A stretch of DNA of 61,101 bases from Lentisphaeria bacterium. Lineage in GTDB: Bacteria > Verrucomicrobiota > Lentisphaeria > Victivallales > Victivallaceae. How positions within the stretch are numbered: the first letter of the stretch is position 1; every line of letters begins with the position of its first letter. The DNA lies in NCBI GenBank assembly GCA_017502435.1, contig JAFVUZ010000028.1:1-61101 (forward strand), written 5' to 3'. A program made the position numbers and the translations under genes. The notes under the pieces are model-generated. The model had not been told where the DNA came from. It did no database searches and was given only the letters and a program-made list of their open reading frames with translations. Positions 968 through 58,300 of the stretch are shown here, one piece after another.

Positions 968-1579
968 TTATGCTGCGGGTTTTGCTGCAGGTTTGGCAGC
1001 GGGGGCTTTTTTGCCTGGAGCAGTTTTGCGAGCGGGACGTTTGGGAGGATTCATGATACGCTGGAAGATCTTTTCGATTTCGGCGTCACGGTTTTTCTGC
1101 ATTTCTGCATTTTTCTTGTCCATGGCATCTGCAATTTTACGCATGCTTTCGGCACGTTTTTTGTTCATTTCGACTTGTTTGTCAAAATTTTTACTCAGGA
1201 AAGCAACGACTTTGGCCTTGTTTTCGGGAGTCTGTTTTGCTTTGTATTCCTTGACAGCGGCACGGAATTTTTCCATTTCGGCTTTTGCTTCGGGAGACAT
1301 TTTGAAGCGGGGACGGCGTACCATCGGGGCTTTTTTGTTATTTTTGAATGCATATTTCTGCATTTTTTTCTGCTGCGGGCAATCGGCTTTTTTCATTTTT
1401 CCGTTTTTGACCGGGCATTTTGCTTCGGGGCAATCTTTTTTATCTTTGCAATCTTTTTTTTCACATTTTTCTTTCATTTCTTTGCAGCATTTTTCTGCAT
1501 CTTCGGGGCAATCACTTGCCATGGCAAAGAGTCCGCAGGTGCAGAGAGCGGCGGCGAGGAACAACAATGTTTTTTTCAT
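968..1579 (-). CDS. secreted Cys-rich / Lys-rich protein of unknown function (helical Spy/CpxP-like middle, basic PAK tail)
   Basis: Signal peptide MKKTLLFLAAALCTCGLFAMA, AGGA RBS and a terminator downstream. The N-terminal region has 9 Cys, including a repeated DCP motif. The C-terminus is KKAPAAKPAAKPAA. Confidence 0.7.
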   Translation of the reverse strand: MKKTLLFLAAALCTCGLFAMASDCPEDAEKCCKEMKEKCEKKDCKDKKDCPEAKCPVKNGKMKKADCPQQKKMQKYAFKNNKKAPMVRRPRFKMSPEAKAEMEKFRAAVKEYKAKQTPENKAKVVAFLSKNFDKQVEMNKKRAESMRKIADAMDKKNAEMQKNRDAEIEKIFQRIMNPPKRPARKTAPGKKAPAAKPAAKPAA

Positions 1580-2939: not shown

Positions 2940-4031
2940 ATGTTTGCCCAAGATAATATTGATTTTATGTGTCCGGTTTCAGTTATGTTTGAAGCTGATG
3001 AAAAATTTAGTTTCGCTCGCGAACCGGTACTCCACCGTATGCCTGACGGAACATTGGTTTCTCTGCTTTACACCGGAGGAAACAAAGAACCGCATCCTGA
3101 AAATGTGGTTGCTGTCACAAGAAGTTATGATGACGGAGAGACATGGAGCAAGCCGGAAATAATTTTTCAGCATCCTTTCCGTGCCTGTTGGGGAACGGAA
3201 CTATTTACCGGCGGGGATTTGCCGTTTATAGTATTTCAGACTTTTTCGGTGGATACGGATTATTGTGAACTGCGTGCTTTTATAAGTTTTACCCGTGATA
3301 ACGGCAAAACATGGAGCGAACCCTGTACAATTCAGGGAGTGCCGCCGAATTTCACTGTCCGTCAGGGACGGATTCTGTCTGACGGTTCATGGATTTTTCC
3401 TGTTTATCATCAGGAGACAAACAGCCAGTGGCAGGGCTCATTGATGAAAGATAGTTCCTGCCGTAAAAAATGGCGTTTTGTCTGCGGTGTTATCAAGTCA
3501 AATGATAACGGAAAGTCTTTTTCATATCATGGCTTCATCCATCATCCGGCTGATTGTCATCATTGGGAACCGGACATCACCGAACTTGAAAACGGACATC
3601 TGCTGATGTATATACGTTGTGAATCTCCGGAAAATGTTCTCTGGCAGTCTGAAAGTTTCGATTACGGCAAAACATGGAGCAATTCCGTGCCGACTGATAT
3701 TCCAAGTGCCGGCAGTAAAGAGATGATTTGCGATATAGAGGGCAGAAAAGTCATGTTTTTCAATCATGTCACCCCTGATGCAGTCAACCGCAATACACTT
3801 GCCGCATGGACGAGCAGTGACAACTGCAGAACATGGTACAGAAAAAATGTCATTGCCAAATTGAATGATTACACCGGAGAACTTGAGGAGATGTACAAAG
3901 GCAAAATACATCCAGTGCAGGTCGCTTATCCGCACGTTTTTGCAGATAATGAAAAACGTCTGGTCTATCTGGCAATCGATTCAGTTTACAAATTTTATTT
4001 GATGAAAATCCCGTTTGATGAGCTTATCTGA
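2940..4031 (+). CDS. BNR/Asp-box repeat protein, sialidase (GH33)-like
   Basis: Five Asp-box-like repeats: SYDDGETWS, TRDNGKTWS, SNDNGKSFS, SFDYGKTWS, SSDNCRTWY. The start is set at ATG 2940 because the ORF-track start at 2871 overlaps the upstream gene. No signal peptide. Confidence 0.8.
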   Translation: MFAQDNIDFMCPVSVMFEADEKFSFAREPVLHRMPDGTLVSLLYTGGNKEPHPENVVAVTRSYDDGETWSKPEIIFQHPFRACWGTELFTGGDLPFIVFQTFSVDTDYCELRAFISFTRDNGKTWSEPCTIQGVPPNFTVRQGRILSDGSWIFPVYHQETNSQWQGSLMKDSSCRKKWRFVCGVIKSNDNGKSFSYHGFIHHPADCHHWEPDITELENGHLLMYIRCESPENVLWQSESFDYGKTWSNSVPTDIPSAGSKEMICDIEGRKVMFFNHVTPDAVNRNTLAAWTSSDNCRTWYRKNVIAKLNDYTGELEEMYKGKIHPVQVAYPHVFADNEKRLVYLAIDSVYKFYLMKIPFDELI

Positions 4032-4076
4032 CCCTGATTTTTTCAGTTGAAAGATTTTTAACGGTTTGAATTTTGT

Positions 4077-4895
4077 TTAAATTTCAACTGTCATACCGTC
4101 GTAGGCGACTTCGATGTTATGCGGGGTGAAAAATTTTTCCATATCAGCTTGAAGCGGTGCTCCATTGTGTGAAAAATGGTTGGTGATGAAGCGTGTTTTT
4201 TCTGTTGTCAAGCCGAGTTCCTGTAATTTTTCTTTGAATAAAACGGTGTACTTTTTGCTCATATGTCCGATTGAAAAATCCTGAAGAGTAAAAGCACATG
4301 TACATTCGATTACTGCGAGGTCAAGTTTTTTACCGTAATTTTTAATAAGTTCCCAGTTTGCATCGTCCCAGTAACCGGTATCATTGGCGATCAGGATGGT
4401 TTTGTTATTTTCAGTAATGACATAATTGAGTGGAGTCGAATTTGGATCGTGATCTGCACGGATGGCGAGGATTTCAAAATTTCCGGCATGGAAAACATCT
4501 CCGGGATTGACTTGATTTTTATTGATTTTTGCTTTTTCATAATCGACACGGGCAGTGATTTTTTCGTGAACTCTGGCATCACCGAAAATATCAATGAACT
4601 CTTCGATTTTGGAATAACCCGGACTTCTCCAGATAAGTTCGACAGGGTCGAGGTGGTCTTCGTGGGCGTGAGTGAAAAAAATCCGTTTGATATCTGCAAG
4701 ATCGAAATTATACATTATCGACTGATTCCAGATATCCGGACCGTAATCGATCAGAGTATCATCGTTCAAGAGATAACAGCAGCGTTTGCGAATATCTTTG
4801 CCGCCGTTTTTGCGGGCGGTTCTGCAAGTGTCGCAAATACAGAAATGAGCAGGCACAGCCTCTGCCGCTGCGGTTCCGAGAAAAGTAAGTTTCAT
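4077..4895 (-). CDS. MBL-fold metallo-hydrolase, PhnP-like phosphodiesterase
   Basis: THAHEDHLD (the HxHxDH motif) plus an N-terminal CxCxxC cluster (HFCICDTC), as in PhnP-type enzymes. Confidence 0.8.
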   Translation of the reverse strand: MKLTFLGTAAAEAVPAHFCICDTCRTARKNGGKDIRKRCCYLLNDDTLIDYGPDIWNQSIMYNFDLADIKRIFFTHAHEDHLDPVELIWRSPGYSKIEEFIDIFGDARVHEKITARVDYEKAKINKNQVNPGDVFHAGNFEILAIRADHDPNSTPLNYVITENNKTILIANDTGYWDDANWELIKNYGKKLDLAVIECTCAFTLQDFSIGHMSKKYTVLFKEKLQELGLTTEKTRFITNHFSHNGAPLQADMEKFFTPHNIEVAYDGMTVEI

Positions 4896-4991
4896 ATAAA
4901 GTCCTTTTTTTTAGATAGTGAAAATTCATAAATAATACATTTATAATATATCAGTGCAAATTACAAATGCAAATATCAGGACTTACTTCTT

Positions 4992-5039
4992 TTGAAGTGC
5001 ACCCCAAAAGTTGGACAAAAATTTTGAGGTGCACTTCAG
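4992..5039. repeat. long hairpin in the intergenic region (not terminator-like)
   Basis: GAAGTGCACC (4994-5003) pairs with GGTGCACTTC (5028-5037). An inner CAAAA/TTTTG extension adds about 16 bp in total. No U-run follows on either strand. Confidence 0.6.
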
Positions 5040-5085
5040 GAACGCCGGAGTCGGTGCAAGTCCCCTTGCAAAAAAACAACCGTAC

Positions 5086-7926
5086 TTATTTTACTTCCAT
5101 AGAAATCAATGCACTGTCGCCTTTTGAGTTGACGCGCTGATTCATTTCCAGAACCGCGAGAATAGTTTTTCCGGCGTAATCTTTCAGGGGAATTGACCAG
5201 AGTTGCGGAGTTTTGTCAAAGAGGCTTTCGCGTTTTTCCTTGTTCCAGGTCCATGAGGGTTCTTTGGTTCTGCCTTTGGCGGTATCGAAACTTTTGATGG
5301 TTTTGCCGTTGATTTTCAGGGTATAGACAACACCGTCATGCGGATGTGTCATAATTGATGAAATATCCTCGATGCTGACAAGTAGAACTTTTTTGTCATC
5401 AGAGACTTTGATCGGGAGAGTCAGATTTTTGCTGTCGCCTGTGACATTGTAATAAGTTGTATTGTTTTTTACAACTTTGCGTTTACTCTGTAACGTACCG
5501 GCGGAGAAAAGGGAAATTCCGGTGCTTTCAGCAACTGTCATCTGAATATTTCTGTAATCAATATGATTGGCGAAAGCAGTAATAACAACAGGGGATGTCG
5601 CCTTGACAGTTCCTGCTTTGACAGTTTTGCCATTGACTTGAATCTCTGCAAATTTTTTGTCTGCACTGACAGTGAATTCAATCTCTTTTGTTTGAGATTC
5701 AAGTACGCAGGAGGCAACGGAGGGAGTTTCAAAATATTCTTTGACAAATGCGCCGTCAGAGAGAGAAGTCAGCATGATGGAAGTTTTTTTGTTCAATCCG
5801 GGATATACTGCATAATGCGCTTTGGGATTCAAGCCTGCAAGTTCTCCGTCGCCCCAGACTGGCCATTTGCCGGGACGCATAAGAGTTTTGACTTTGTTCT
5901 GACCGTGAATGCGGCCGTAGAGCGGCTTTTTGTCAGGACCGAGCATCTGTTGGATTTTGCCGTCATCATAATAAGAATAAATACCGTCATTACCTTTGTA
6001 CATACAGATAATATTTTCTGGATATTCGCCGCCGGGGAAATATGGACGGAGATTTTTCTGAGAGAAAATAACTCCGCGTTTATGCAAATGTCCCCAGAAG
6101 GACCAGTCAGTATCAATCACTGATTTGGTTTTTCCGAAATAATATAATGTTGAAATCATACCATATCCGCCTGTTGCATCGGCAATCGCAACTTGAGCGT
6201 GACGGATAAAATCATTGTAACCGCGTGATGCACCGACCCACGGACGATTGCCGTAAATAAATGTTGACAACGGCAGAGAATCAGTAAGCATTGCATATTG
6301 AGTGTCTTCTGTAAAGAGCCAGCAGTGGAGCAATTTAAGCGGCCAGTGAATGCTGTGAGCGTTGGCGTGAGTCAGATATTCGGAGGCATAAGCAGTTTGC
6401 GGCAGTGCTTTTGCCAGCATTCGCAATTGTTCACGTTCACCCTGTGCGCCGGACAAACCTTCAATAGTTCCGTTGCCGGTATCTGCACCGCAGCCTGCGG
6501 TATCTTCATAGAGGGCATCGGTTTTTGTGACGGAAGTCCATTCTTTCATCAGATCAACGTGGAATTTGCGCCAGCCGGGAGAGAGCAGATCACCGTAATA
6601 AAGACGGTCTTTTTTGTATTTATCAAATGAACGGAAGTTCATAAGGTCAGTTTTTTCCGCTTCTGTCATAGTCGGATTGCCGTAGTAACCGAGAGATACG
6701 CGGGAGGGCAGGAAAAATTTATCAAGACCGTATTTCTGCCACGCCGGAGATTTATAATTGGCACAGCAGATATTGACATAAGACATTACTTTGTGACCGT
6801 ATTTGTGAGCTCGGGCGACATTGTTGACATAATTTTTGCGGGGAGACCAGTCGGGCAGTTCCTTGTCCCAGCCGGGGGCACGGGCGTTCCAAGCCATGAA
6901 AGCGACAGTTCCGGCAGGGAAGTATTCTTTCAGAAGTTCAAAATGTTTTTCACCGAAACTTACAATGTCTGTATTGATGGACATTCCGATTTTATCAATC
7001 CATTTGACTGCATCACGGGCGGCGATTTCTTTGCTGTACTGCTTGTGAAAATAATTGCGGTACGGAGTTGCAGCAGTTTGCCATCCGCCATCAAAAACAT
7101 TCAGATAAACATCTGGAGAAACTGCACTTTTTTTGTTGAGAAAATACATCAGATTGCAGTGTTCAAAAATGAGCGAATGACTCTTGTCTGTGCGGTTGAA
7201 ATATGCTATGAAATCACGGACTGCAGGGTCCTGTATCCACAATGCCAACGCATTGTTGTTTTTTGCTGTAAAAATCATCAGCGGGGCTTCCATATCTTCA
7301 TTTTTGGAGAGCGCGGTCAGAAGTCCGCTTCTGCCGTCACGGATGAATCTGCCTCCGTAAAGCGGCAGAATACCCTGTGCTTTGCGGTCTATATTGGCAA
7401 CGGCAGTTGCAGTGCCGTAAACGTTTCCGCTTGGATAACTGCCGGATGTGCGGATGCGGAGAGAACCGTCTTTTTCCGCTTTGAGTTCAACGGCAAAAAC
7501 AGCATCCTTGAGAAATTCTTTGCCGTTTGAAAGTCCTTTGTAGGTGAGCAATACGGAGCCGTCCTGTTGTTTTTTTACGGAATAATCCGACTTTTCTGCG
7601 GGGAGGAAATAATTTACCAGAGAAAATCCCGGTTGCAGAGCGCGATTATTTTCAAACTGACCGTTGCGGGCGTGAAATTTACGGAAAATATCAATATTTT
7701 TCAAAATACCGAGACCGCCGGGAACGGCAGTATCTTTTTTATTTTTATCTGCCCATACAAAATTGTTTTTGAGGTTTCTGACTTCAGTTATAACGCCTTT
7801 GTCAACGATGACCGACATGTTTGAAGTTTTGAAGTTGAAAGGCTCAGGAGTTGCGGCACTTGCATCGGCGAGCGAAGCCAAAACCGCAGTCAGACCGAAA
7901 ACTTTCAATATTTTTAGTGAACGCAT
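5086..7926 (-). CDS. large secreted protein, function unknown (putative glycan-active enzyme from context only)
   Basis: 946-aa ORF with signal peptide MRSLKILKVFGLTAVLASLADASA and an AAAGGA RBS. It lies 24 nt downstream of the pseudopilin-like gene. I can assign no family motif by eye. Confidence 0.75.
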   Translation of the reverse strand: MRSLKILKVFGLTAVLASLADASAATPEPFNFKTSNMSVIVDKGVITEVRNLKNNFVWADKNKKDTAVPGGLGILKNIDIFRKFHARNGQFENNRALQPGFSLVNYFLPAEKSDYSVKKQQDGSVLLTYKGLSNGKEFLKDAVFAVELKAEKDGSLRIRTSGSYPSGNVYGTATAVANIDRKAQGILPLYGGRFIRDGRSGLLTALSKNEDMEAPLMIFTAKNNNALALWIQDPAVRDFIAYFNRTDKSHSLIFEHCNLMYFLNKKSAVSPDVYLNVFDGGWQTAATPYRNYFHKQYSKEIAARDAVKWIDKIGMSINTDIVSFGEKHFELLKEYFPAGTVAFMAWNARAPGWDKELPDWSPRKNYVNNVARAHKYGHKVMSYVNICCANYKSPAWQKYGLDKFFLPSRVSLGYYGNPTMTEAEKTDLMNFRSFDKYKKDRLYYGDLLSPGWRKFHVDLMKEWTSVTKTDALYEDTAGCGADTGNGTIEGLSGAQGEREQLRMLAKALPQTAYASEYLTHANAHSIHWPLKLLHCWLFTEDTQYAMLTDSLPLSTFIYGNRPWVGASRGYNDFIRHAQVAIADATGGYGMISTLYYFGKTKSVIDTDWSFWGHLHKRGVIFSQKNLRPYFPGGEYPENIICMYKGNDGIYSYYDDGKIQQMLGPDKKPLYGRIHGQNKVKTLMRPGKWPVWGDGELAGLNPKAHYAVYPGLNKKTSIMLTSLSDGAFVKEYFETPSVASCVLESQTKEIEFTVSADKKFAEIQVNGKTVKAGTVKATSPVVITAFANHIDYRNIQMTVAESTGISLFSAGTLQSKRKVVKNNTTYYNVTGDSKNLTLPIKVSDDKKVLLVSIEDISSIMTHPHDGVVYTLKINGKTIKSFDTAKGRTKEPSWTWNKEKRESLFDKTPQLWSIPLKDYAGKTILAVLEMNQRVNSKGDSALISMEVK

Positions 7927-7950
7927 ATTAAAATCCTTTCCCTGTTTGTA

Positions 7951-8655
7951 TTAATATTTTGAATTGTTATAGTCAAAACGCATCCAGTTGGAGGCATCAC
8001 CCCAGTTGCTTTTCTTGATAGAATCAACGTGCATATCAGCAAAAAGAGCATTGGCAACACCGCCGTGAGCAGAAAACTGATCCGTGCTGCCGGGATTCAG
8101 ACCGCTGACACTGCCGCCGTGACCGACACGTCCCCAAATATAATTATAATCCAGAAGAACAACTTTGCGGCTTGTGCCGTATTTGGCTTTGTCCAAACGT
8201 CCGAAAGCCATACCGTCATAATAAGTACCGCCCGGCTGATAATCACGATTATTTGTTACCTGTTCAAAGTCTTCTATCGCATATCTGTTTGCATAGTAAT
8301 TGCGGGACAAATCGCCGAAAGGACAATTATTACAGGCTTGGGTTGATTGTTTATTGACTGCGGGACATGAAAAAACTTTTGCAGTGCCGAGATAACCGTT
8401 ATTTATAAGTATGGCATCATAAGTATCAACGTGAATAACAATACTGGTTTTACTGGTATTCACTGCCGGCGGAAGTCGCTGAAAGTCATTTTCATACATA
8501 CTCATTGCCAGACCGATTTGTTTCAAATTGGCGGCACAGCGGCTCTGATTAGCTTTCTGCCGTGCTTTGTTCAATGCGGGGAGGAGCATTCCTGCAAGGA
8601 TGGCGATGATTGCGATTACGACCAAAAGTTCGATGAGGGTGAATGTTTTTTTCAT
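7951..8655 (-). CDS. prepilin-type N-terminal cleavage/methylation protein with H-X9-DG-type C-terminus (DUF1559 family)
   Basis: N-terminus [32 protein letters not shown] (class III signal / GFxxxE-like). C-terminal [13 protein letters not shown] is an H-X9-D motif. Its ATG overlaps the regulator stop (ATGA). Confidence 0.9.
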
Positions 8656-10766
8656 ATTCTGTCCTTTCTGTTAAGGGGTTGTTTTTCTAAAAAATTCTGC
8701 AGCGCCCTGCCGCGTTTTCCCGCGTCAGGAGAGGCAAAATACATAGCTTCCCAGCACATCAGGCGGTTGACAAAAGGTGCGGCATTGGTGATCTGCGCAT
8801 TGACACGTTCAACTTCCGCCGGAATGAGATTTGTTTTCGGCTTATAGCCCTGCCGTTCAAAAAGTTCAATATTCGCCCACAGTTCCATATCGTTTGCTGT
8901 GGCACATTCCTGCCAATATTTCCAGCGGTGCACGGAATTGCACAAAAGTACGCCGCTGCCGACTGAGTCCTGCGGCATCAAAATATCAACCCCGCTGTCA
9001 TGGAGAACCGTATTCCAGAAATCAACAAACTCTTTTTCTTTGCCGTCAAAGGGAGCGGTTACAGGGGAAATTATAACTTTGTAATCTGCATTTTTCTCTT
9101 TGACCATCGAGGTGAAAAATTTATACAAATCGTGAATTGCCGCCTCTTTTTCTGCATCTCTGCTGCCTTTAAAGGCAGTTTCTGCGGGGAAATAAGCACC
9201 GGCGATTCTACCGATATTGCAGATTTCCTCAAAACATTTGCGGTGGTTGTCCAATTCTCTCTGCATGTCAGATTTGCTCAGATTTTTCTGCCAGCCTGCA
9301 CAACTGCCGTACCCGCCGAGAAAAACTTCCATTTCCTCCGAGTCTGCCGCATCAAACATATTTTCAAGCACATTGTAACACTGCATATTATCAAAATGGC
9401 GTGAATTATAAAAACATTCATTCAATTCATTCCACAGTGACGCCTGAAAAATAACTGTTTTCATATTCATTTTTTTCAGTCGTTTGAAAATCTTCCGCCA
9501 GTCATCCGCACCGGCATTGTGCATATGAAATCCGCGGTAATCCGGCGGCTGAGCATAGATGAAGGTTCCGCTGATTTTCGCCTCTGCGGCTTTTTTGTAT
9601 TCCAATGCGCTTTTGCGGTTGAGTTCGTTTGTCTTCAAAACTTCGGCAAGTTCTTTCTCTTCGTTGAAATGTACCGGCGGCATAAAATAGGGGATATTAT
9701 CCACATGACCGACGGGAAAAAGTATACCTTTTTCATTCTTTTTGAGCATTTCAGCGACTTCAGAATCATCCCATGCGGTTGCAACAGTGATATGACCGGA
9801 CGGATTTTTTGCCGTTTCCATGAATATTGACACCTGCTCATTGATATTGCATACGCATTTAAGTACCGGAACCGGAAATTCAGACAGGATATTTCCTCTG
9901 TTGATATGAGAGATAATGATTACATCCTCCATAACTTTCAAACCTTTTTGAAGTACAGCGGAAATAATTCCCAGTGTCAAAATGCTGTCGGTTGAAATTA
10001 TGCCGCACGGGAGAGAGGGATTTTTGTCAAGAAATTTCAAGGCGGCGTTGTAGCCTTCACGCGGCAGCCAGTTGCAGCGGTAGAGATCTTCTTCTGAAAC
10101 CAGATTATTTTCCAAAGCCCGCTCGCTGAAACTTTTATCAGATTCCCAGTGGCGGGTCTGGGTTGCGCCGGTTATAATTGCGACGGATTTGCAGTTGTGC
10201 TGACGGAGCAGATCATTTGCCTCGTTGAGCCATGTACGGTCATAAGTCACTGAGTTTTCAAGAGTTATATAACGGTGAAGTCCGATTACGGGAATATTTA
10301 TGTCGCGCATATATTTTTCTATATCGTCTGCAAAATTCTGACTTGCGAGTCCGATGGCATCACATGGATGATCGAGCAGAAAACGGCGCACTTTCAAACT
10401 GTCAACATCCGTGTCTATATTTTCAAAAACAGTCAGACGGATATTTTTGTTTTTGCATTCTTCGCGTATTTTCTGCACAAAAAACGCCTTGTGACCATAC
10501 GCACCGCATTCAGCAAGTGTATCAAAAATAAGCACATAATGAGCTTTGTTTGTGCCTGCGACAAAAATTCCTTTGCCATTGATGCGTTCAATGAGTCCTT
10601 CATTCTGCAGTACTGTAAAAACTTTATCCATTGTAGCGACAGTAGTTCCCATTGAGGCGGCGAATTTCGGCAGAGTTTCAAACTGGTAATTTTTGGGCAA
10701 TTCTCCGGAAAGAATTTTTTCTCTCAAATCATGAATTATATACTGTGATTTATTTTTTCTTTGCAT
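8652..10766 (-). CDS. GntR-type wHTH + periplasmic-binding-fold (LacI-like) sensor + extra C-terminal TIM-barrel-like (DUF4434-like) domain regulator
   Basis: N-terminus [38 protein letters not shown] (GntR HTH). The middle is sugar-binding-fold-like. About 330 aa remain beyond what the paralogue at 53454 has. GGAG RBS. Confidence 0.85.
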
Positions 10767-10801
10767 AAAAAAAAGTCTCCTTTTCCATAATTTTTGTTCT
10801 T

Positions 10802-10830
10802 AATATAACCTTTATAGAAAGGTTTGTCAA
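10802..10830 (-). promoter_or_regulatory. sigma70-like promoter with embedded palindromic operator
   Basis: On the minus strand: TTGACA (10830-10825), 17-nt spacer, TATATT (10807-10802). The spacer holds the inverted repeat AACCTTT-N4-AAAGGTT (10807-10824). Confidence 0.5.
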
Positions 10831-10901
10831 GAAAAAAATCTAAAAAAAACAGAAAAAAATAGTTATTGTCTTTTTTTGCTCTGCTGCCCGTATTCAGAGA
10901 A

Positions 10902-12176
10902 TCAGCATTCACGGCATCTGACGCCGAGAGAAGTCAGTTTTTGAAGCAGATTTTCGTATCCGCGGTAGATAACTTCGATATTATTGATCGTACTCTCTCC
11001 TTTGGCACAGCTGGCGGCAATCACCATTGCCATTCCTGCACGGATGTCCGGACTCGGCAATGTCATGCCGTGCAGATCCGAAACCCCTGAAATTACTACG
11101 CGGTGCGGGTCGCAGACAATAGCATTCGCTCCCATAGCGATAAGTTTATCTACAAAGTATATACGTGATTCAAACATTTTTTCAAAGAAAAGCACTGTTC
11201 CTCTGGTCTGGGTGGCGGCAACAATAGTACAACTCATCATATCAGAGGGATATTGCGGCCATGTGCCGTCGGAGATGCAGGGGATTTGACCGTCAAAATC
11301 TTTTTTGACTTCGGGAACCTGACCGCCGGGAAAAATCAGAGTGTCATGTGTAAGTGTCATTTTGAAGCCGAGACGCTCAAAAACACGGCGTGTCATCCAG
11401 AAATGGCGGGGAGCTATGCCTTCAATTTTTATATCACCTCCGTTTGCAGCGGCAAGCGCGAGAAAACTTCCCCCCTCGATATGGTCGCCTGAAACAGTGT
11501 AGGTGCAGCCGTGAAGTTTGGCAACTCCGTCAACAGTGATGACATTGCCCCCCTGACCGGAAATTCTGCCGCCCATGGCATTGAGAAAGTCTGCAAGGTC
11601 GGCGACGTGAGGTTCGCAGGCGGCATTATACAAAACAGTTCTGCCCTTTGCACAGACTGCCGCCATCAGGATTTGTTCGGTCGCAGTGACACTGGCTTCA
11701 TCCAGAAAAAGTTCGCGTCCGTGCAGTCCCGACGGAGCCTCAAAAACATAAGCATCTTCAGACTCAAGTCTGCTGCCGAGTGTTTTCAATCCGTAGATAT
11801 GTCCGTCCAGACGGCGGCGTCCGATAACATCTCCGCCCGGCGGATAGACAGTTGCTTTGCCGAAACGTGCCAGCAGAGGCGCGGCATAGAGAATTGAGGT
11901 GCGGTTTTTTGAACAGAGTTCACGTGGAATGACGTAACTTTTTGCCTTTGAAGCACAAAGAGTTAATGTATTGTTTGCAAAATCAAATTCACCGCCCAGA
12001 GCGGCAAATATTTCAAGCATGGAACGTACATCAAGAATGTCGGGGACGTTTTTTAAAGTAACTTCTTCATCACTCAGCATGGCGGCGGCTATCATCGGGA
12101 GTATTGCGTTTTTGTTGCCGCTCAAGCGTACTGTACCGGAAATCGGATTCCTGCCTTCGATTTTAATTGCACTCAT
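10902..12176 (-). CDS. murA: UDP-N-acetylglucosamine 1-carboxyvinyltransferase
   Basis: N-terminus IKIEGRNPISGTVRLSGNKNAILPMIAAAML and overall EPSP-synthase-fold MurA signature, 424 aa. Confidence 0.95.
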   Translation of the reverse strand: MSAIKIEGRNPISGTVRLSGNKNAILPMIAAAMLSDEEVTLKNVPDILDVRSMLEIFAALGGEFDFANNTLTLCASKAKSYVIPRELCSKNRTSILYAAPLLARFGKATVYPPGGDVIGRRRLDGHIYGLKTLGSRLESEDAYVFEAPSGLHGRELFLDEASVTATEQILMAAVCAKGRTVLYNAACEPHVADLADFLNAMGGRISGQGGNVITVDGVAKLHGCTYTVSGDHIEGGSFLALAAANGGDIKIEGIAPRHFWMTRRVFERLGFKMTLTHDTLIFPGGQVPEVKKDFDGQIPCISDGTWPQYPSDMMSCTIVAATQTRGTVLFFEKMFESRIYFVDKLIAMGANAIVCDPHRVVISGVSDLHGMTLPSPDIRAGMAMVIAASCAKGESTINNIEVIYRGYENLLQKLTSLGVRCREC

Positions 12177-12263
12177 AAAATTCTCCTTATTATGTTTTAC
12201 GGTACTGTATCACAGGTTTTCTTTTTTGCAATATCAATAATCAAAATAAAATGCGAAAAAAAA

Positions 12264-12292
12264 TTGCAACTTTGCATTTTGTATGCTATATT
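12264..12292 (+). promoter_or_regulatory. sigma70-like promoter of rsmD-comM
   Basis: TTGCAA (12264-12269), 17-nt spacer, TATATT (12287-12292), preceded by TGC (extended -10 like). Confidence 0.5.
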
Positions 12293-12323
12293 GCACAAAA
12301 ATACAATAACAAGAGGAAAGATT

Positions 12324-12905
12324 ATGCAGATAATTGCGGGAAAAGCAAGAGGTGTTGAACTTGAGACTGCTCCGACTCTGGAGGTACGTCCTACATTGGC
12401 TCGTGCAAGAAAAGCTCTTTTTGACAGTATGGGCGATTGGAGTGGAGGTGTGGTGCTTGACCTTTGTGCCGGCAGCGGTGCGTTGGGACTTGAAGCGGCA
12501 AGCAGAGGGTGTGCCGAAGTATTGATGGTGGAAAATAATCCCCGTCATGTTGAAGTTATTAAACGCAATATTGTAAAACTTGAGAAGTGTTCAGTTGAAA
12601 CAAAGATGAATGTTTATCATGGAAGCATTCTTGATACAAAGAAGATTTTTTCCATGCTGAATGATATTGATGTGATTTTTGCTGATCCTCCGTATGAAAA
12701 TTCGGCTGAATTTTTTGAAACGTTGCTCAATGATGAAACTTTTATTGAAAACGCCGCAGCTGCAATCATTATCTGGGAGATTCCGGATACGCCGGGAAGT
12801 GCGGGGAAATTTATGAAACGTGAATATTTTGACGAATTTACTATCCGCAAATTCGGGCCGACGATGTTTCTTATTGCCCGCATATCTGACGGAGAGGAGG
12901 ATTGA
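12324..12905 (+). CDS. rsmD: 16S rRNA (guanine966-N2)-methyltransferase
   Basis: MQIIAGKARG start with an AGGAAAG RBS. SAM motif LDLCAGSGALGLEA and FADPPYE (the DPPY motif). The ORF-track start at 12192 is an unlikely extension. Confidence 0.85.
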   Translation: MQIIAGKARGVELETAPTLEVRPTLARARKALFDSMGDWSGGVVLDLCAGSGALGLEAASRGCAEVLMVENNPRHVEVIKRNIVKLEKCSVETKMNVYHGSILDTKKIFSMLNDIDVIFADPPYENSAEFFETLLNDETFIENAAAAIIIWEIPDTPGSAGKFMKREYFDEFTIRKFGPTMFLIARISDGEED

Positions 12906-51790: not shown

Positions 51791-51957
51791 ATGAAGCCTG
51801 AAAAGGCTTCGCTTCATGCACCGAAGGTGCGCTTCATGGCACGCAGTGCCGCTTCATACGCCGTCAGGCGTGCTTCATAAAAACGCCTTTTCAGATGAAG
51901 CATTGTTTCGTTTCACTCCACAATATGAAGCATCTTCATTTCATTCCGATATGAAGC
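51791..51957. repeat. heptamer ATGAAGC/GCTTCAT cluster with 20-bp periodic hairpin units
   Basis: ATGAAGC at 51791, 51895, 51925 and 51951. GCTTCAT at 51811, 51831, 51851 and 51872. The reverse-orientation copies are each followed by a different 5-bp-stem palindrome (GCACC-GAA-GGTGC, GGCAC-GCA-GTGCC, ACGCC-GTCA-GGCGT). Confidence 0.85.
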
Positions 51958-52058
51958 ACTCCGCTCACGCTCCGTATGATTTAAAAATGAAAAATGAGAG
52001 TTATGTTTGCAAATATTCCTTGTCTATGCGGCATGATTCAATGGAAAGAAAAAATCTC

Positions 52059-52418
52059 ATGGAAAAAACTTCAAATAAACTCGTTGATCTTTCTGTTGCC
52101 TTTGCAGTTGAAATATTGAATCTTGTAAAATATCTGAAAGAACAGAGAGAAACGATTATATGCAATCAAATCGGCAGAGCCGGAACAAGTATCGGAGCCA
52201 ACATCCACGAAGCGCAATATGCTCACGGGAAAGCTGATTTTGTTTCAAAACTGCAAATTGCCTTGAAAGAAGCCAATGAAACAAGCTACTGGTTGCTGCT
52301 ATTGGGAAAAACAAATATCCTCTCTTCGGCAGAATATGATCGGTTGGAAAATCTCTGCCGGGAAATCAGAATAACTCTGATCGCCTCAATCAACACCACG
52401 AAACAGAATCTTAAATAA
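52059..52418 (+). CDS. four-helix-bundle protein (23S rRNA intervening-sequence protein / Avd-like family)
   Basis: QIGRAGTSIGANIHEAQYAHGKADFVSKLQIALKEANETSYWL matches the family core (RA..SI..NI.E...F...L.IA.GS..E). Likely start is MEKTSNK (52059) or MERKNL (52041). The ORF-track start at 51816 translates the repeat array. Confidence 0.85.
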   Translation: MEKTSNKLVDLSVAFAVEILNLVKYLKEQRETIICNQIGRAGTSIGANIHEAQYAHGKADFVSKLQIALKEANETSYWLLLLGKTNILSSAEYDRLENLCREIRITLIASINTTKQNLK

Positions 52419-52480
52419 CCCATTGCGGCAGATCATTCTCTAATCGTCATTTTTGATTTTAAGTAAAATCACATTCTGCT

Positions 52481-52891
52481 TTAATTTACATCAAGATAAC
52501 GTATTGTCCAGAAATTGATGAATTCTTTCGTTTCGGAATCCAATATTTTATTTTCAGCAAGTTTCATAATTACAAACAACATAAGGCGGATTTGCTGTCT
52601 GGAAAAATTATTTAAAAATACCATTCTCTGCTGTCTGGAATATTCTGAAATATCTTCCGGAAGGGGCAAAAGAGTAAGACAAAACATAGATAAATTTCCA
52701 ATATCTGAACATCTTTCATCTCCATATACTGCAAAATAAAGAAAAATACCGATCATTCGAATTTGAGTTGCATCGTCAGCAGTACACATATCTTCAGCCA
52801 TACCATAGATATCAATCTCTCTTGGCAGTGTTTCAATTTTGAAAGCCTCCAGAATCTCCTGAACTATATCATAATATTTTTTATGCTTCAC
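52481..52891 (-). CDS. hypothetical protein (orphan, 136 aa)
   Basis: Only the open frame supports this call. It has a GTG start and no motif I recognise. It converges on the four-helix-bundle gene. Confidence 0.45.
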   Translation of the reverse strand: MKHKKYYDIVQEILEAFKIETLPREIDIYGMAEDMCTADDATQIRMIGIFLYFAVYGDERCSDIGNLSMFCLTLLPLPEDISEYSRQQRMVFLNNFSRQQIRLMLFVIMKLAENKILDSETKEFINFWTIRYLDVN

Positions 52892-53116
52892 AAACTTTCT
52901 CCAAATAAAATAATTTTATAGTGAATACCCTCAAAAATAATATATCATTTGCATAATAAAATTCAAGTCAAGACTACGAACTTTTATCAGGGAAAGTCCT
53001 CTGCATTACATTTTAACGTTTTTTGATTTCATGAGACTTTTTTCGCAGTTCTGTAACTCTCTACATCCTTCGCTAAAGCGACGGAGGGCTAACGGCAGAG
53101 AATTGGAGAAAAACGA

Positions 53117-53326
53117 ATGTTCTACACCTACATTTTACGCAATATTTCCCATCCTGATCAGCGTTATATCGGCAGTACAGCAGATTTAAAGTCCCGCCTT
53201 GCAAAACACAACGCTGGTGAAGTACCTCATACCTCAAAGTTCAAACCGTGGAAAGTTGAAGCATATTTCGCCTTTGAAACCAAAGAAAAGGCAGCGGCAT
53301 TTGAAGCATACCTTAAAACCGTTTGA
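53117..53326 (+). CDS. GIY-YIG nuclease family protein (short, possibly C-terminally truncated)
   Basis: MFYTYILRNISHPDQRYIGSTADLKSRLAKHNAG carries the GIY-(x)n-YIG and R..H motifs of the small UPF0213-type family. It ends at 69 aa, just after the YLKT motif. Confidence 0.75.
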   Translation: MFYTYILRNISHPDQRYIGSTADLKSRLAKHNAGEVPHTSKFKPWKVEAYFAFETKEKAAAFEAYLKTV

Positions 53327-53453: not shown

Positions 53454-54551
53454 ATGTCAATGAAGAAGAAAAATCAAGGTGAAAAAACTGAATTTGCCAA
53501 ACAGCTGATCGTTTGTCTTATGCGTGATTTGAACATGAAAGCAGGCGATAAACTGCCGTCTCAAAATGAATTGAGACTGCAATTCAACGTCGGTGCAACC
53601 ACCATTCAGCGGGCAATCGATACTCTCGCAAAATCCGGAATTCTGGAAATCCGTCCGCACAAAGGCGTTTTTGTCAAAAATCAGGATACTGACGGCTTTA
53701 TCGCCCGGCAAATAGGACTTGTCTCCATGTGGAGAACTTTTCAGCCTGCGTCGGCCTCGATGATGCAGTGTCTGCAGCTGCAGTTGCATCAGAACGCCTG
53801 TCAGTGCAAACTTTTTATGCGTAACTTTCCGGAAATGACACTTACAGATTCACTTTCATATTTTGACGGTTTGAAACGTTGTATTGAGCAGAAGGAAATT
53901 CAGGGGCTTATAACTACAGTTTCATTAGATTATGAAGCGTGGGATTTTCTGAATAAACATAAAATTCCGGTAGTTTCACTGGATTCTGCAACATTCAACA
54001 AAGGTTTTAAAGTTTGTGATTCAGATTATCTGGCGGATTTTTTTGTCATGGCGGCAAAACGTAATTTAAAACGTCCGGCTCTGCTGCATTGCGGATTTCC
54101 TGTAACTGATAAAATCCGTGATACTTTTATGGAAAACTGTCCTCTTGATCCTGAAATTTACTGCTGTTTCCTGCAGACTGATATACAAGTTGAAGATAAA
54201 CCCTTTGAATGGACAGAAAAATTGATAACTGTTCTGCATGGTTTCAGTATTATGCCGGCAAACAAACGTCCCGATGTTTTGTTCATTCCCGATGATATAA
54301 TAATGAATATTGCTCACCGTGAAATTGTGAAAATGCAGTTGAACGGAGTGGATTGGCATCCTCATTTTATTTATTCTGTCAGTAAACAGATACCGATTAT
54401 TCCGAAAGGATTGATTGCAGGAGAGCGTTTTGAATACGATATAATGAAGAAGGCAGAAACTGCAGTAAAACTGCTGCTTGACGTTATCTGCGGCAGAAAA
54501 AACGAAGCAGAAACAATTTATATACATCCGGAAATCCAAATAACCCCTTAA
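53454..54551 (+). CDS. GntR-type wHTH + periplasmic-binding-fold (LacI-like) regulator
   Basis: LPSQNELRLQFNVGATTIQRAIDTLAKSGILEIRPHKGVFV (GntR HTH) followed by a ~290-aa sugar-binding-fold-like domain. Confidence 0.85.
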   Translation: MSMKKKNQGEKTEFAKQLIVCLMRDLNMKAGDKLPSQNELRLQFNVGATTIQRAIDTLAKSGILEIRPHKGVFVKNQDTDGFIARQIGLVSMWRTFQPASASMMQCLQLQLHQNACQCKLFMRNFPEMTLTDSLSYFDGLKRCIEQKEIQGLITTVSLDYEAWDFLNKHKIPVVSLDSATFNKGFKVCDSDYLADFFVMAAKRNLKRPALLHCGFPVTDKIRDTFMENCPLDPEIYCCFLQTDIQVEDKPFEWTEKLITVLHGFSIMPANKRPDVLFIPDDIIMNIAHREIVKMQLNGVDWHPHFIYSVSKQIPIIPKGLIAGERFEYDIMKKAETAVKLLLDVICGRKNEAETIYIHPEIQITP

Positions 54552-54566
54552 CAGAAAGGATATAAA

Positions 54567-55340
54567 ATGAAAAAACACTCAACTCAAATCGCCGGGAAGT
54601 TCACTTTGATTGAACTGTTAGTCGTCATTGCAATTATCGCAATTCTTGCAGGTATGCTGCTTCCGGCTCTGAGCAAAGCACGAGACCGGGCTTATGCTGC
54701 AGACTGTACCTCAAAACTAAAACAGATTGCTATGCAGCAGAATATGTATCTGGATGATTTTGACGGTAATTTTCAACATCATTCCTCAACTTATGAAACT
54801 GCCGCGGAATGTCCGTGGGGCTATATATTGGAAAAGTCAGGTTATATAAAAGTAGAAAAAAAAGCAGCGTCTGTCAGATGCAGACCTATTTTTAATAAAT
54901 ATGCCCAGACTTCCGCTGCTGATTACAAAGAAGACTGGACCAGCGATCAGTTTTCATGGAGTTGTAAATTGACATATGGAATGTCCGGTGTGCTTATCGG
55001 CCGCAAAACCAATGCCTGGCTTGATAATGGTCCCGGAATCAAAGATATTTATACAAAACCTGCCAAATTATCAAAAATTACAGCTCCTTCAAAAACACTT
55101 ATGCTTTCTGATTATTATACCGATGAAGGCAATATTACCAGAGGCTATCCTACTATTATTTATGACGGCAGTATGTCTCCCGGAAGTAATACAGATTATT
55201 ATTATCCTGAAGCCCGTTACAAACTGCATGGCAATAAATTCAACATTGCCTATGTTGACGGTCATGTTTCTGCTGTTGTTCCGAATGATATTTATACTAA
55301 AAATGAAAAGAAAAAAAATGTATTTCTTTACAATGAATAA
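54567..55340 (+). CDS. prepilin-type N-terminal cleavage/methylation protein with H-X9-DG motif (DUF1559 family)
   Basis: [33 protein letters not shown] at the N-terminus. C-terminal HGNKFNIAYVDGH is an exact H-X9-DG. Confidence 0.9.
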   Translation: MKKHSTQIAGKFTLIELLVVIAIIAILAGMLLPALSKARDRAYAADCTSKLKQIAMQQNMYLDDFDGNFQHHSSTYETAAECPWGYILEKSGYIKVEKKAASVRCRPIFNKYAQTSAADYKEDWTSDQFSWSCKLTYGMSGVLIGRKTNAWLDNGPGIKDIYTKPAKLSKITAPSKTLMLSDYYTDEGNITRGYPTIIYDGSMSPGSNTDYYYPEARYKLHGNKFNIAYVDGHVSAVVPNDIYTKNEKKKNVFLYNE

Positions 55341-55362: not shown

Positions 55363-58300
55363 ATGAAAACAAAATTATTTTTTGCCGCTGCTTCAGCAAT
55401 GATGGCTATGCATCTTGCGGGAGCGGACCCGACGATTTATATCTCTTTTGACAAAACTGCCCAGGCAGATTTCGGCGGCACTGCTAACAGCAGAACCACA
55501 GTCGCCGGTCTCCGTGATGCTATCGGTGTCAAACCTGTTTTGCGGGTGAAAAAAGGGAAAAAAGGTCAAAAATATCAGGCCGATACTTTTCTCCAGCCCG
55601 GCATCAAAGGAAAAGCATTCCCCGTCGGTGAAACTTCCACCGGAGAAATCCTGACTCTCGTTTACAAAATCAATCCGAAACTTCCTGCCGCAAACGGTAC
55701 TGTTTCCATGTGGGTCAAACCCGTAACATGGGACGGAAAATCTCTGGCTCAGCATCATTTGTTTTCCGGCCGCAACGGCAACCACTGGCTGTTTTTGTAC
55801 AAATACGGCAATGTCCGTGATTTTTTGGGATATTACGGAACTTATACCGAAAAAAATCAAACCACCGTCCGTTCTGCAGTCAACAGCTGGAAAAAAGGCG
55901 AATGGCATCATATCGCCGCTACATGGAACAAGGATAATTTTTCACTCTATATTGACGGCAAACTCCGCAAACATTCAATGATGAAAGCCATTCTCAAAGA
56001 TGACTTCGCTGAAATTGTGCTGGGTGAGCATTGGGCAGGCAAGCCCGGGCAAACTTTGCTCGATGAAGTGAAAATTTATGATAAAACTCTCACTCCGGAT
56101 GAAATCAATGCTGAATATGAGTCATTGAAAAGCAATCTCGCTTCAAGCGGACGTGCAGACGTTGAAATTTCTGTCAGCAAAACAACTCCAACTACCGATG
56201 GCGTTATCAAAAAAAACGAATATTCCGCTGTCATCGGCGGAATGCGTGATTTAAAAAAGAAAAATAATTTTGCCACCAGTCAGAGTATCAGCCATTATGC
56301 ATGGGATGATAACAATTTTTATTTTGCTGTAATTTCACCTGCTGTAAAAAAAAATGAGTATCTTGCCGGCAGAGACAGTGAAGTTTTTACAGAAGATTCA
56401 ATCGAACTCTATCTGAAATCCGATGCATTGTATCAGTTTATAATCAATCCCCGCGGTACTGTTTATGATTCCAGAAATTCTGACAGCAAATGGAACTGCA
56501 GCACTATTGCAACTTCCGGTAAATTTGTCGGCCCCAACTGGATAATTGAAGGCAGAATCCCATGGAAAGAAATCAATTTCAAACCGCAGGACAATGCAGA
56601 ATTAAAATTCAATATCGCCAGAAATTTTGCGGATACAAAAAACTTCACTCATATATCTTCATCACGGACATCTTTCGGTGAAGAAAAAGGATTCGGTAAA
56701 ATAATTCTGAAAAAAAATATTCCTTTTTATGATTTCTCGCAGCTCGGCAAACTTCATGCTTCAACAGGCGATGCGAAACTTTTAATCAACTCAGCTAAAA
56801 AACAGCAGGTTCAGATAAAATACAATGTTGATGCCTCTATGTTCGCAATCAACATTGACCAGAAACTGCCTCTCGATGCCGGTAAAACTTTCCAGCATAA
56901 TATCAAACGCAGACTTCCTGCAGACAGTACGCTTTTTTACTCAGTTGATACAAGCGTTGACGGTCCGTTGTATTACCTCCGTATGGATTATCAATCTCCG
57001 GAAAGTCTGAAACTCTGGTATATCCATACCGATCTTGCCAATAAAAAACTCTTTTTCAATTTCCGCAATAACCGCCTCGGCGAAGGGAAATGCACCATCC
57101 AGCTGGATATGGTCAGCAATGACGGCAAAAAAGTTCTCTCTGAAAGTGTAAAAATCAATGATGCCAAAATTGTTGAAAGTGTATCTTTTGATATTGCAAA
57201 TATTCCCTCCGGTTATTACTTTCTGAACTATAAATTGATCGACCCCGCAGGCAAAGTTTATGTTTCAGATAAAGAGGAATACTCTATTTTTCACAACGGA
57301 GCCCCCTGGGACAATATTCAGGACGGACTTGAAGATACTCTGGTTCCGCCGTGGACTCCCATCAAGTCTGAAGGCAGCCGTTTTGAATGCTGGAACAGAA
57401 GTGTCGTTCTCGGCGGCAGCGGACTGATCAGCAATATCAAATCTGCCGGAGCGGAAATGCTCAGACAACCTGTAATTCTCAAGGTGAACGGAGAAAGTAT
57501 TCCTTTCAAAGCTGAATTTGTAAACAAAAACAATACCAGAGCCAATTATATTCTCAAATCAACTGTTGCTTCAGTGCCATTGGAATTCAATGTGTACTGC
57601 GAATTTGACGGCTTCATGTATTTTACCGGTAAATTTACAAAAGAATTTGCCGTTAAAAATATCGATCTTGTAATTCCTCTCAAACGTCAATATGCTGATG
57701 CTTTTGATGACTGTGCCAGCTGCTATTACAAGACTTCATTGAAAAAAGATGGTCTCAATATCAGTTTGAATGCCTTTATAAATCAGTTTTTCTGGTGCGG
57801 AGGCGACAAAGTCGGTATCATGGGAGGAACCGCAAATAAACGCGGATGGCACGTCAAAGAAAAAGCACAGTCCATGAATATTAAAACTTCAAAAGATGAA
57901 GTTATGCTCAAATTGAGTATCGTTGACAGTCAGTTCAAAGCCAAAGCAGGTCACTTTTTCGCTTTCTATCTGCAGCCGACTCCGGTCAAACCCAAAAATA
58001 ATAAATTCCGCGGTGCTCAGGAACGCTACAATGTAATCATCGGCGGCCAAAGTCACAGATTCTATGAATTCGATGTTCCCGGATATTATGATACTTTCTG
58101 GAAATGGATTCATCACAGAGTCAGAGCGGATAAACGCAATACTGTTGAAAAAATGCAATATTATTCCTATACCGCTCCCAAAGGCGTTTCCCCGATGTCT
58201 CCGATATGGAATTACTACTGTACTGACTGGGTAAATCCGCCTCCCGGTCTCGGACAATATTCCGCTGATAATCCCGACATTGCAAAACGTGCAAGCAGAA

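Follow-up and report, generated by a model that had tools for sequence, protein, structure and literature searches.

A probable glycan-utilisation operon in a Lentisphaeria bacterium combines a repressor fused to a glycosidase-like domain, a DUF1559 pilin-like protein and a secreted DUF6259 protein

Three genes on the minus strand of a 61,101-nucleotide contig from a Lentisphaeria bacterium (JAFVUZ010000028.1; this whole stretch is called the window below) lie tightly packed between positions 5086 and 10830 and probably form a glycan-utilisation operon of a gut or rumen bacterium of Victivallales type; for the operon and enzyme model as a whole, we put the probability at about 0.6. The first gene (8652-10766) encodes a 704-aa regulator in which a GntR-type winged helix-turn-helix and a LacI-type sugar-binding domain are fused to a complete DUF4434 domain (DUF, domain of unknown function), as indicated by Pfam and NCBIfam matches, PDB sequence matches and orthologs of the same architecture. 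The second (7951-8655) encodes a 234-aa DUF1559 protein resembling type IV pilins, with an N-terminal methylation motif and α1 helix, a divergent globular domain and an H-X9-D motif. The third (5086-7926) encodes a 946-aa secreted DUF6259 protein, assigned by a PF19773 match, a family alignment, an AlphaFold2 model and Foldseek comparisons. All coordinates given in a first-pass annotation of this DNA are correct, and it described the order and operon-like packing of the three open reading frames (ORFs) as they are. The locus combines known kinds of element, namely an AraR-type regulated glycan operon, a TIM-barrel enzyme resembling glycoside hydrolases (GH) and a DUF1559 paralog. Its most interesting aspects, both absent from that annotation, are the joining of a repressor to a glycosidase-like domain and the co-inheritance of pilin-enzyme pairs behind a stereotyped leader.

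By sequence comparison, the N-terminal part of the regulator is of the AraR type. The winged helix-turn-helix occupies residues 8-69 (10560-10745, minus strand); PF00392 matches it at E 3.4e-5 with 23.8 bits, a little short of the gathering score (27), precomputed PF00392 assignments exist for the orthologs, and the DNA-binding domains of HutC, PdxR and YvoA match residues 8-79 in NCBIfam and PDB sequence searches. The effector-binding domain, of the LacI or periplasmic-binding-protein (PBP) type I, covers about residues 94-306 (9849-10487, minus strand). It is matched weakly by Peripla_BP_3/4 and also by the EbgR, UriR, PurR and CcpA models; among PDB sequences, the CcpA structure 2o20 matches the regulator with E 6e-6, and LacI and YvoA match as well.

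The remainder of the regulator, residues 343-704 (8655-9740, minus strand), is equivalent to a whole standalone DUF4434 TIM-barrel protein. PF14488 aligns over profile positions 1-281 of 283 with E 1e-30 and 107.7 bits (gathering threshold 30), and standalone proteins, 334-364 aa long, share 38-52% identity with the domain and begin directly at it without an N-terminal signal segment. The fusion has kept every position invariant in the standalone proteins, among them the glutamates of strands 4 and 7 and a PQD motif. An AlphaFold2 model of the domain gives a TIM barrel with a mean predicted local confidence (pLDDT) of 88, and it places E529 after strand 4 and E634 after strand 7, the arrangement of clan GH-A glycosidases; these two glutamates are candidate catalytic residues. 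The closest solved fold is BT_0435 (4h41; E 1e-15, template-modelling (TM) score 0.75, 17% identity), followed by Cwp19, GH10, GH53 and GH18 structures. The three-domain fusion occurs in five related clusters only, the 90% identity cluster of the window regulator, which has 13 members, and four more distant ones, and it comes from independent assemblies. It is thus real and restricted to close Lentisphaeria relatives. P0046, a relative of the DUF4434 part, is fused instead to a GH28-like beta-helix. The first-pass annotation had recognized a 704-aa regulator, which stands and is now refined to an AraR-type protein, but it missed the complete enzyme-like domain.

In the model that we consider most likely, this complete cytoplasmic DUF4434 protein at the C-terminus of a repressor would trim imported oligosaccharide and thereby make or destroy the effector beside the sensor domain. 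The fused domain could instead be a catalytically silent sensor, a pseudo-enzyme that binds a glycan signal while the LacI-type domain serves for dimerisation only. Enzyme-derived sensor domains are common in one-component regulators, and the PBP domain scores weakly against all models. However, pseudo-enzymes usually lose invariant residues, and the fusion has lost none of those of standalone DUF4434 proteins; we judge a silent sensor rather improbable. The joining of a repressor to a glycosidase-like domain is an unusual one-component design and could show how sensing and effector processing are brought together in one protein.

Transcription of the operon is predicted to start from a sigma-70-type promoter, TTGACA-N17-TATATT (10802-10830, minus strand; -35 hexamer at 10830-10825, -10 hexamer at 10807-10802), which is the best promoter-like site between positions 4000 and 12500 (11 of 12 matches). 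As the first-pass annotation had noted, its spacer (AACCTTTCTATAAAGGT) holds a palindrome. This putative operator, AACCTTTCTATAAAGGTT (10807-10824, no strand assigned), is an imperfect 18-nt element made up of the spacer and the first T of the -10 hexamer. Comparison with four orthologous regulator loci, L055 (94% protein identity), L056 (74%) and L004/L005 (about 60%), shows that the promoter is conserved in all four and that their upstream regions have diverged save for one aligned block, TTGACAAACCTTT[C/A]TA[G/T]AAAGGnTATAnTA. The ortholog consensus of the palindrome is ACCTTTCTAGAAAGG, and in two orthologs the palindrome is perfect (CCTTTCTAGAAAGG). Because the promoter and palindrome are kept in four orthologous promoters while the flanks diverged, the block is more than a chance feature. 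Among 110 fetched loci, the motif ACCTTTNTANAAAGG is confined to the orthologous promoters. A motif scan of the window found one strong operator match, at the promoter, and no further operators. L055 has, immediately after its -10 hexamer (its positions 146-160), a second sequence that nearly repeats the operator, CTTTATAGAAAGGTT, and the window is without it.

Since the operator lies between the -35 and -10 hexamers, its occupation would repress the operon, and hence the regulator would repress its own gene. Autoregulation through a promoter-spacer operator, which the first-pass annotation had proposed, is in this sense well supported by a phylogenetically conserved site of predicted binding. 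From the domain architecture and the conserved footprint, we infer that a regulator dimer binds the palindrome ACCTTTCTA(T/G)AAAGG between the two hexamers and keeps its own operon repressed until a sugar effector releases it.

The enzyme gene, at the distal end of the operon, encodes a member of a family that is already in Pfam. PF19773 (DUF6259) matches residues 273-477 of the 946-aa protein with 39.9 bits (gathering threshold 28.7) and E 3.6e-10, and all full-length homologs, which come from Lentisphaeria and Pirellulaceae and are all unnamed, carry the same domain. An exhaustive DUF6259 profile search of 1.84 billion proteins returned 614 cluster representatives (50% identity) at E<=1e-3 and 224 at E<=1e-30. 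DUF6259 is therefore a small, rare and uncharacterised family. Its distant members carry NPCBM modules, dockerins, type IX secretion system tails and sub-threshold GH66 matches, which fits extracellular, glycan-active proteins. Pfam-A and NCBIfam searches with the 946-aa protein found no GH family, and no Pfam GH101 or GH129 match at E<=0.1; its sequence matched no PDB chain at E<=1, and a profile built from a 33-sequence family alignment (28-55% identity) found no relevant PDB chain and no GH101 or GH129 entry at E<=10. The first-pass annotation could place the protein in no family and took it as a candidate for an undescribed glycan-active one. The lack of Pfam GH matches and of solved-structure sequence matches supports this, but the protein does pass the Pfam DUF6259 threshold. 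These searches set it apart from the GH families covered by Pfam-A and NCBIfam, and an undescribed glycan-active family, catalogued as PF19773 though it is, remains a reasonable description for a protein with a GH-type TIM-barrel fold outside the well-known families.

The protein begins, as first annotated, 24 nt beyond the pilin-like gene with a signal peptide (7855-7926, minus strand; MRSLKILKVFGLTAVLASLADASA/A) that by eye is a plausible Sec type I signal. An AlphaFold2 model (pLDDT 86.5, predicted TM-score 0.86) divides the rest into an N-terminal beta-sandwich (residues 30-280, 7087-7839), a (beta/alpha)8 barrel (residues 282-625, 6052-7083) and C-terminal beta-sandwiches (residues 640-945, 5092-6012), all on the minus strand. 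The barrel is the kind of catalytic core that the first-pass annotation had suggested looking for with Foldseek and a predicted model. Foldseek matches this model to GH101 endo-alpha-N-acetylgalactosaminidases (E 2e-24), GH36, GH31, including a cycloalternan-forming enzyme, and GH129, with identities of 9-12% and the best TM-scores for GH129 (0.60-0.64 of target). In the 33-sequence alignment, D446, D470, D475, E516 and D583 are invariant and E474 is nearly so; the model places D446, E474/D475 and E516 at C-terminal strand ends of the barrel (predicted strands 4, 5 and 6). The gene 3 product may thus be modelled as a Sec-exported retaining glycosidase or transglycosidase with an alpha-glycosidase-like mechanism, in which D446, after strand 4, would be the nucleophile and E474/D475 on strand 5 or E516 after strand 6 the acid/base.

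It is also conceivable that the protein has no hydrolytic function. Like the alpha-glucan lyases and cycloalternan-forming enzymes of GH31, it might act on glycans as a lyase or transglycosylase, or it might bind glycans or serve as a scaffold without any catalysis. The cycloalternan-forming enzyme among the fold matches points this way, sequence comparison confirms no catalytic motif, and four distant loci have a homolog beside GFO_IDH_MocA and/or AP_endonuc_2 genes, whose oxidoreductase and isomerase-like products handle keto or anhydro sugars. Set against this, five acidic residues are invariant in 33 sequences and three of them stand at C-terminal barrel-strand ends, which argues for catalysis and against mere binding, and the fold neighbours are mostly retaining hydrolases. 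We therefore regard this reading as unlikely and prefer the retaining glycosidase or transglycosidase. With that assignment, DUF6259 gains a GH101/GH129/GH36-like barrel, named candidate catalytic residues and an extracellular location in gut, rumen and sediment bacteria of the Planctomycetes-Verrucomicrobia-Chlamydiae (PVC) group, and it becomes a reasonable target for the discovery of a new glycoside hydrolase family.

The middle gene encodes the pilin-like protein. Both PF07596 (34.2 bits, threshold 23.3) and PF07963 (21.7 bits, threshold 21.2) match it above gathering, its N-terminus carries a prepilin methylation motif, and the H-X9-D motif reported by the first-pass annotation is found at residues 197-207 (8035-8067), where the next residue is M and not G. 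The H-X9-DG model TIGR04294 scores 12.6 bits (E 0.092), below the required 19. Solved pilins and pseudopilins match residues 2-64 only. An assignment to GspG, the major pseudopilin of type II secretion (equivalog model TIGR01710), fails with 39.8 bits against a required 88.85, over residues 4-63 of the α1 helix only.

The start of the protein is read as MKKT/FTLIELL (8643-8655, minus strand), with an in-frame stop six codons upstream of the ATG. The residue before FTLIELL is Thr here, Lys in the pilin of a second cassette of the window (copy B, described below; 54567-54602, plus strand) and Ser, Cys or Lys in paralogs from related metagenome-assembled genomes (MAGs); it is never Gly. Two alleles more than 90% identical to the window pilin, P0219 and P0222, have the long leader peptide of other paralogs (MKINLKKHDKIKFIRS...) in place of MKKT, which suggests either exchange of 5' modules among DUF1559 paralogs or assembly chimeras at repeated sequence.

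The globular part of the pilin-like protein (residues 61-234) links it to the enzyme. It is 40% identical (E 3e-42) to the L004/L005 pilin, which adjoins a 54%-identical enzyme, and 31% identical (E about 1e-21) to the pilins of L006, L061 and L062, which adjoin 42-47%-identical enzymes; to other paralogs it has no match beyond the H-X9-D region. As the globular-domain matches follow the orthologous enzymes, pilin and enzyme are co-inherited as a pair even where the regulator changes to an AraC type. By these identities, the pilin head evolves faster than the enzyme. At the envelope, the pilin-like protein would most likely be a partner of its cognate enzyme in export, anchoring or substrate capture, and this is the weakest step of the model.

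Pairing has its limits within the family. An adjacent pilin-like ORF on the same strand is present at 14 of the 35 metagenome DUF6259 loci with at least 900 nt of upstream sequence, mostly among closer relatives (>=32% identity). Pairing as a property of the whole DUF6259 family was thus discarded; it is a Lentisphaeria-type organisation and no general requirement of the enzyme. L004/L005 keep the regulator-pilin-enzyme trio and, as in the window, have a metallo-beta-lactamase (MBL)-fold gene further downstream. At more distant DUF6259 loci, the regulator is replaced by a LacI, AraC or plain AraR type, and neither the fusion regulator nor the MBL gene was found beside the homolog. In L001, L003 and L058, GFO_IDH_MocA and AP_endonuc_2 genes both lie downstream of the homolog; L006 has only the AP_endonuc_2 gene. 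A GH78 gene is nearby in L003, rhaA in L006 and an SSF transporter gene in L058. These neighbours may be clues to substrate or product and serve as leads only; GH78, rhaA and the GH28-DUF4434 combination hint at pectic and rhamnose-containing glycans.

A further shared feature is a 17-nt leader, CCCCTTAACAGAAAGGA, which includes the Shine-Dalgarno (SD) sequence and precedes the pilin-like gene (8662-8678, minus strand) within a read-through tail of the regulator ORF. The same 17 nt stand before the copy B pilin gene (54544-54560, plus strand), where 0 matches are expected by chance, even though the adjacent coding DNA of the two pilin genes has many synonymous differences. In the Lentisphaeria RGIG5270, Victivallaceae and SIG95 MAGs (L008-L054), about 20 DUF1559 genes likewise have an exact copy 5-8 nt upstream of their ATG. 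That the leader is identical while adjoining synonymous sites differ, and recurs in these MAGs, argues that it is under selection as a cis element. The part upstream of the SD is CCCCTTAAC. A hairpin sequestering the SD would have a 4-bp stem only (-2.9 kcal/mol, z about -1), which is not significant, and Rfam scans of 4000-12500 and four related loci assigned neither the leader nor the upstream repeats to an RNA family. Although leader and operator agree at 11 of 14 positions, the leader is unlikely to be a second operator of the copy A regulator, since cassettes with unrelated regulators share it. In related MAGs, the leader-pilin genes are followed within 2-52 nt by genes for signal-peptide proteins, including DUF4838 (n=3), heparinase II/III-like, GH38 and DUF4434 proteins and four without a Pfam family.

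Some 170 nt upstream of the leader, related MAGs also have conserved non-coding elements that are present in several copies and measure 170 nt or more. One class (L008, L012, L013, L016, L017, L036, L037, L051) has the hairpin TTACTTTCTTTTTGCAAAAAGAAAGTAA and GACATGTC; the other (L009, L019, L022, L044, L050) has TCCCAAAA-type repeats. Both lie 120-240 nt from contig ends and probably break assemblies; neither is present in the window or matches an Rfam family. Elsewhere in the window, a gene (968-1579, minus strand) whose product is small (203 aa), secreted and rich in Lys and Cys is preceded by a related leader, CCCACTTTAACGAAAGGA (1583-1608), and shares MKKT start codons with the copy A pilin gene (repeat D6, 77%).

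Units of this kind raise the question of whether the pilin-like and enzyme genes belong to the regulator's transcript. The regulator might be transcribed alone, with the other two genes forming a separate unit driven by a promoter in the 3' part of the regulator gene and the pilin-like protein being a generic pseudopilin without a specific link to the enzyme. Many leader-pilin-enzyme units of related MAGs indeed have no regulator directly upstream and follow the long non-coding elements, which are potential carriers of promoters, and weak promoter-like sites do occur within the regulator gene. In the window, however, there is no intergenic space, the best promoter match upstream of the pilin gene reaches at most 9 of 12 positions, and the similarity of the globular domain is specific to pilins adjoining orthologous enzymes (E 3e-42 and 2e-23) and does not extend to paralogs. 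A terminator-like hairpin in the 3' end of the regulator gene (8699-8713) was rejected: neither the 94% nor the 74% ortholog maintains its stem, and a conserved peptide is encoded there. These points make a separate unit quite improbable, and we favour a single operon in which the three tightly packed genes would be transcribed from the one sigma-70 promoter.

The distal part of such a transcript would include the 24-nt spacer between the pilin-like and enzyme genes (7927-7950), with a ribosome-binding site, GGAAAGGA, inside it. It would run on to a hairpin with a 17-bp perfect stem (4994-5037, minus strand), 49 nt past the enzyme stop codon and without a U tract. A 106-nt stretch here folds with -38.2 kcal/mol (z -3.9), both arms are unique in the window, and the hairpin is likely to be the 3' end or a stabiliser of the operon transcript. 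The downstream MBL-fold gene has promoter-like sites of its own.

The regulator and pilin-like genes overlap by an ATGA (8652-8655, minus strand), in which regulator TGA and pilin ATG overlap. The first-pass annotation reported this overlap correctly and read it as translational coupling that makes the two proteins in fixed proportion. Comparison with orthologs indicates that the overlap is a derived feature. The window regulator ends GAA AAA CAA CCC CTT AAC AGA AAG GAC AGA ATA TGA; the 94% ortholog (L055) ends TTA GAA AAA TAA CC, and the 74% ortholog (L056) ends GAA AAA TAA CCCCCTCAACAGAAAGGATAAAATATG, with the leader next and the pilin ATG 24 nt after. The ancestral TAA of both orthologs aligns with the CAA codon of the window, so that a single T>C change (TAA>CAA) turned the stop into Gln and added nine codons (QPLNRKDRI), which cross the pilin leader before the first in-frame stop is reached. 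The ancestral end, LEK, is found in nine other full-length members of the 90% cluster, among them the near-identical P0207, which shares the N-terminus of the window protein. With 5 contigs of several sources carrying it, the 704-aa form is a genuine allele rather than a one-off sequencing error. A more distant ortholog, P0045, has a different 16-aa tail beyond LEK (NTPAAPIRKKSSRVKN), and loss of this stop codon may have happened repeatedly.

Designed coupling of a transcription factor to a pilin-like protein can appeal to the overlap itself and to the spread of the 704-aa allele. Yet a conserved stop/start overlap is not found among the orthologs: the nine cluster members and the 94% and 74% orthologs end at LEK, the gap between regulator and pilin genes is 42 nt in L004/L005, 15 nt in copy B and 24-42 nt in close alleles and most orthologs where read, and the pilin gene keeps a strong SD of its own, 6 nt before its ATG. 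The overlap being limited to the 704-aa allele, fixed proportions lack comparative support, and we judge designed coupling very improbable. By sequence comparison, the ATGA is an allele-specific stop loss without a conserved role. The methodological lesson is that a single mutation can by accident create a 4-nt overlap in an individual sequence. Another ATGA (59265-59268) joins the GH123-like and GH127-like genes of copy B, and overlaps of this type are thus common in the genome of the window.

Copy B supports the first-pass idea of a recurrent cassette in architecture but not in sequence. From ORFs and Pfam matches it consists of a 365-aa GntR-type regulator (53454-54551), a 257-aa DUF1559-like pilin with a true H-X9-DG motif (54567-55340), a 1301-aa secreted protein with LamG and GH123-like domains (55363-59268) and, overlapping the latter, a GH127-like protein (59265-60923), all on the plus strand. 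The two copies have in common their architecture, the first 54 mature pilin residues (69% identity) and the 17-nt leader. BLASTP found no significant similarity between their regulators or between their large proteins, and the promoter region of copy B has a different set of repeats and palindromes (AGTAAAC). The copies are hence not sequence duplicates, since only the pilin N-terminus and the leader are shared. Upstream of copy B, a low-GC region (51816-53326, GC 0.37) encodes a four-helix protein of the 23S-rRNA-IVS family (51816-52418) and a 69-aa GIY-YIG-like ORF (53117-53326). The remainder of the window contains housekeeping genes (dxr, ispG, rseP-like, tgt, xseA and murA-like), among which GH20, heparinase II/III-like, BNR sialidase-like, GH123-like and GH127 genes are scattered. 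Homologs occur in MAGs of Lentisphaeria and Victivallaceae that were recovered from the gut, the rumen and similar environments.

Several points weigh against the operon and enzyme model as set out here. In Pfam, the GntR and PBP matches of the window regulator score below gathering, and the searchable literature yielded no characterised member of either DUF4434 (PF14488) or DUF6259 (PF19773). The candidate catalytic residues of the 946-aa protein are assigned from conservation and predicted strand ends. Gly at -1 is the canonical requirement of PilD-type peptidases, and with Thr in its place it is doubtful that a prepilin peptidase would process the pilin-like protein and that it could then assemble into a filament. 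Most DUF6259 relatives near 30% identity are without an adjacent pilin gene, and there may be a promoter internal to the regulator gene.

A broader proposal extends the model to Lentisphaeria more generally, and we offer it tentatively, as on balance unlikely and much less probable than the operon itself. Secreted glycan-active enzymes of these bacteria would each be matched with a dedicated DUF1559 pilin behind a common leader, the fast-evolving globular head of the pilin being specific for the enzyme or its substrate. The pilin might then act as a cargo-specific adaptor for a secretion or anchoring machine resembling type II systems, or as a substrate-capturing "fishing rod," and the copy A repressor would sense through its fused, active glycosidase domain. 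A literature search on links between pilins and carbohydrate-active enzymes in Lentisphaerae or Victivallis found nothing relevant. In PVC bacteria, DUF1559 proteins make up one of the largest groups of paralogs, and their one-to-one placement and co-inheritance with secreted enzymes offer a handle on the question of their function.

Among known systems, the regulator is most readily compared with AraR of Bacillus subtilis, which has a palindromic operator overlapping its own promoter and controls secreted glycan-degrading genes. The window regulator shares the N-terminal combination of a GntR winged helix-turn-helix with a LacI/GalR-type sugar-binding domain; its palindrome likewise overlaps its own promoter, implying autorepression, and a gene for a secreted, probably glycan-degrading protein would be under its control. 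Unlike AraR, it has a third domain, the complete DUF4434 TIM barrel of about 360 aa, and unlike typical GntR sites, its operator lacks a GT...AC core. The closest fold to this third domain, BT_0435 of Bacteroides thetaiotaomicron, is a structural-genomics entry labelled "putative alpha-L-fucosidase"; in contrast to the window domain it stands alone, without fusion to a DNA-binding domain, and its label is "putative" only.

The 946-aa protein has the same domain order as GH129 enzymes (the alpha-N-acetylgalactosaminidase NagBb, 5wzp, and the 3,6-anhydro-D-galactosidase ZgGH129, 5opq) and GH101 enzymes (2zxq, 3ecq, 5a55), and it resembles them in having invariant Asp/Glu residues at consecutive predicted strand ends. 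It differs in its two extra C-terminal beta-sandwich domains and in a relationship (9-12% identity) that escapes detection at the sequence level. Its overall architecture is also that of GH36 and GH31 (clan GH-D alpha-galactosidases, alpha-glucosidases and alpha-xylosidases), and the 70 residues from D446 to E516 would match the spacing from nucleophile to acid/base in these families; there is, however, no sequence relationship, and the TM-scores are lower (0.38-0.44).

The pilin-like protein resembles the DUF1559/H-X9-DG prepilin-like families of Planctomycetes and other PVC bacteria in its methylation motif, PF07596 domain and C-terminal H-X9-D. Planctopirus limnophila has 68 such paralogs (PMC10632474) and Rhodopirellula baltica 74 (PMC2754498), and the literature found on DUF1559 in these two sources assigns no function. 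Unlike those families, the copies described here lie directly upstream of a gene for a secreted glycan-active protein and are co-inherited with it, have T, S, C or K rather than G at -1, have DM in place of DG in copy A and carry the 17-nt leader before the gene.

At the level of the locus, the nearest parallel is with the polysaccharide utilisation loci of Bacteroidota, which also combine a substrate-specific regulator, envelope proteins and secreted glycan-active enzymes and recur many times within a genome with different enzymes. The loci described here have no SusC/SusD pair, and the recurring envelope component is the pilin-like DUF1559 protein. If the broader proposal is true, matched pilin-enzyme pairs would give PVC bacteria an alternative of their own to the SusC/D logic that Bacteroidota follow.

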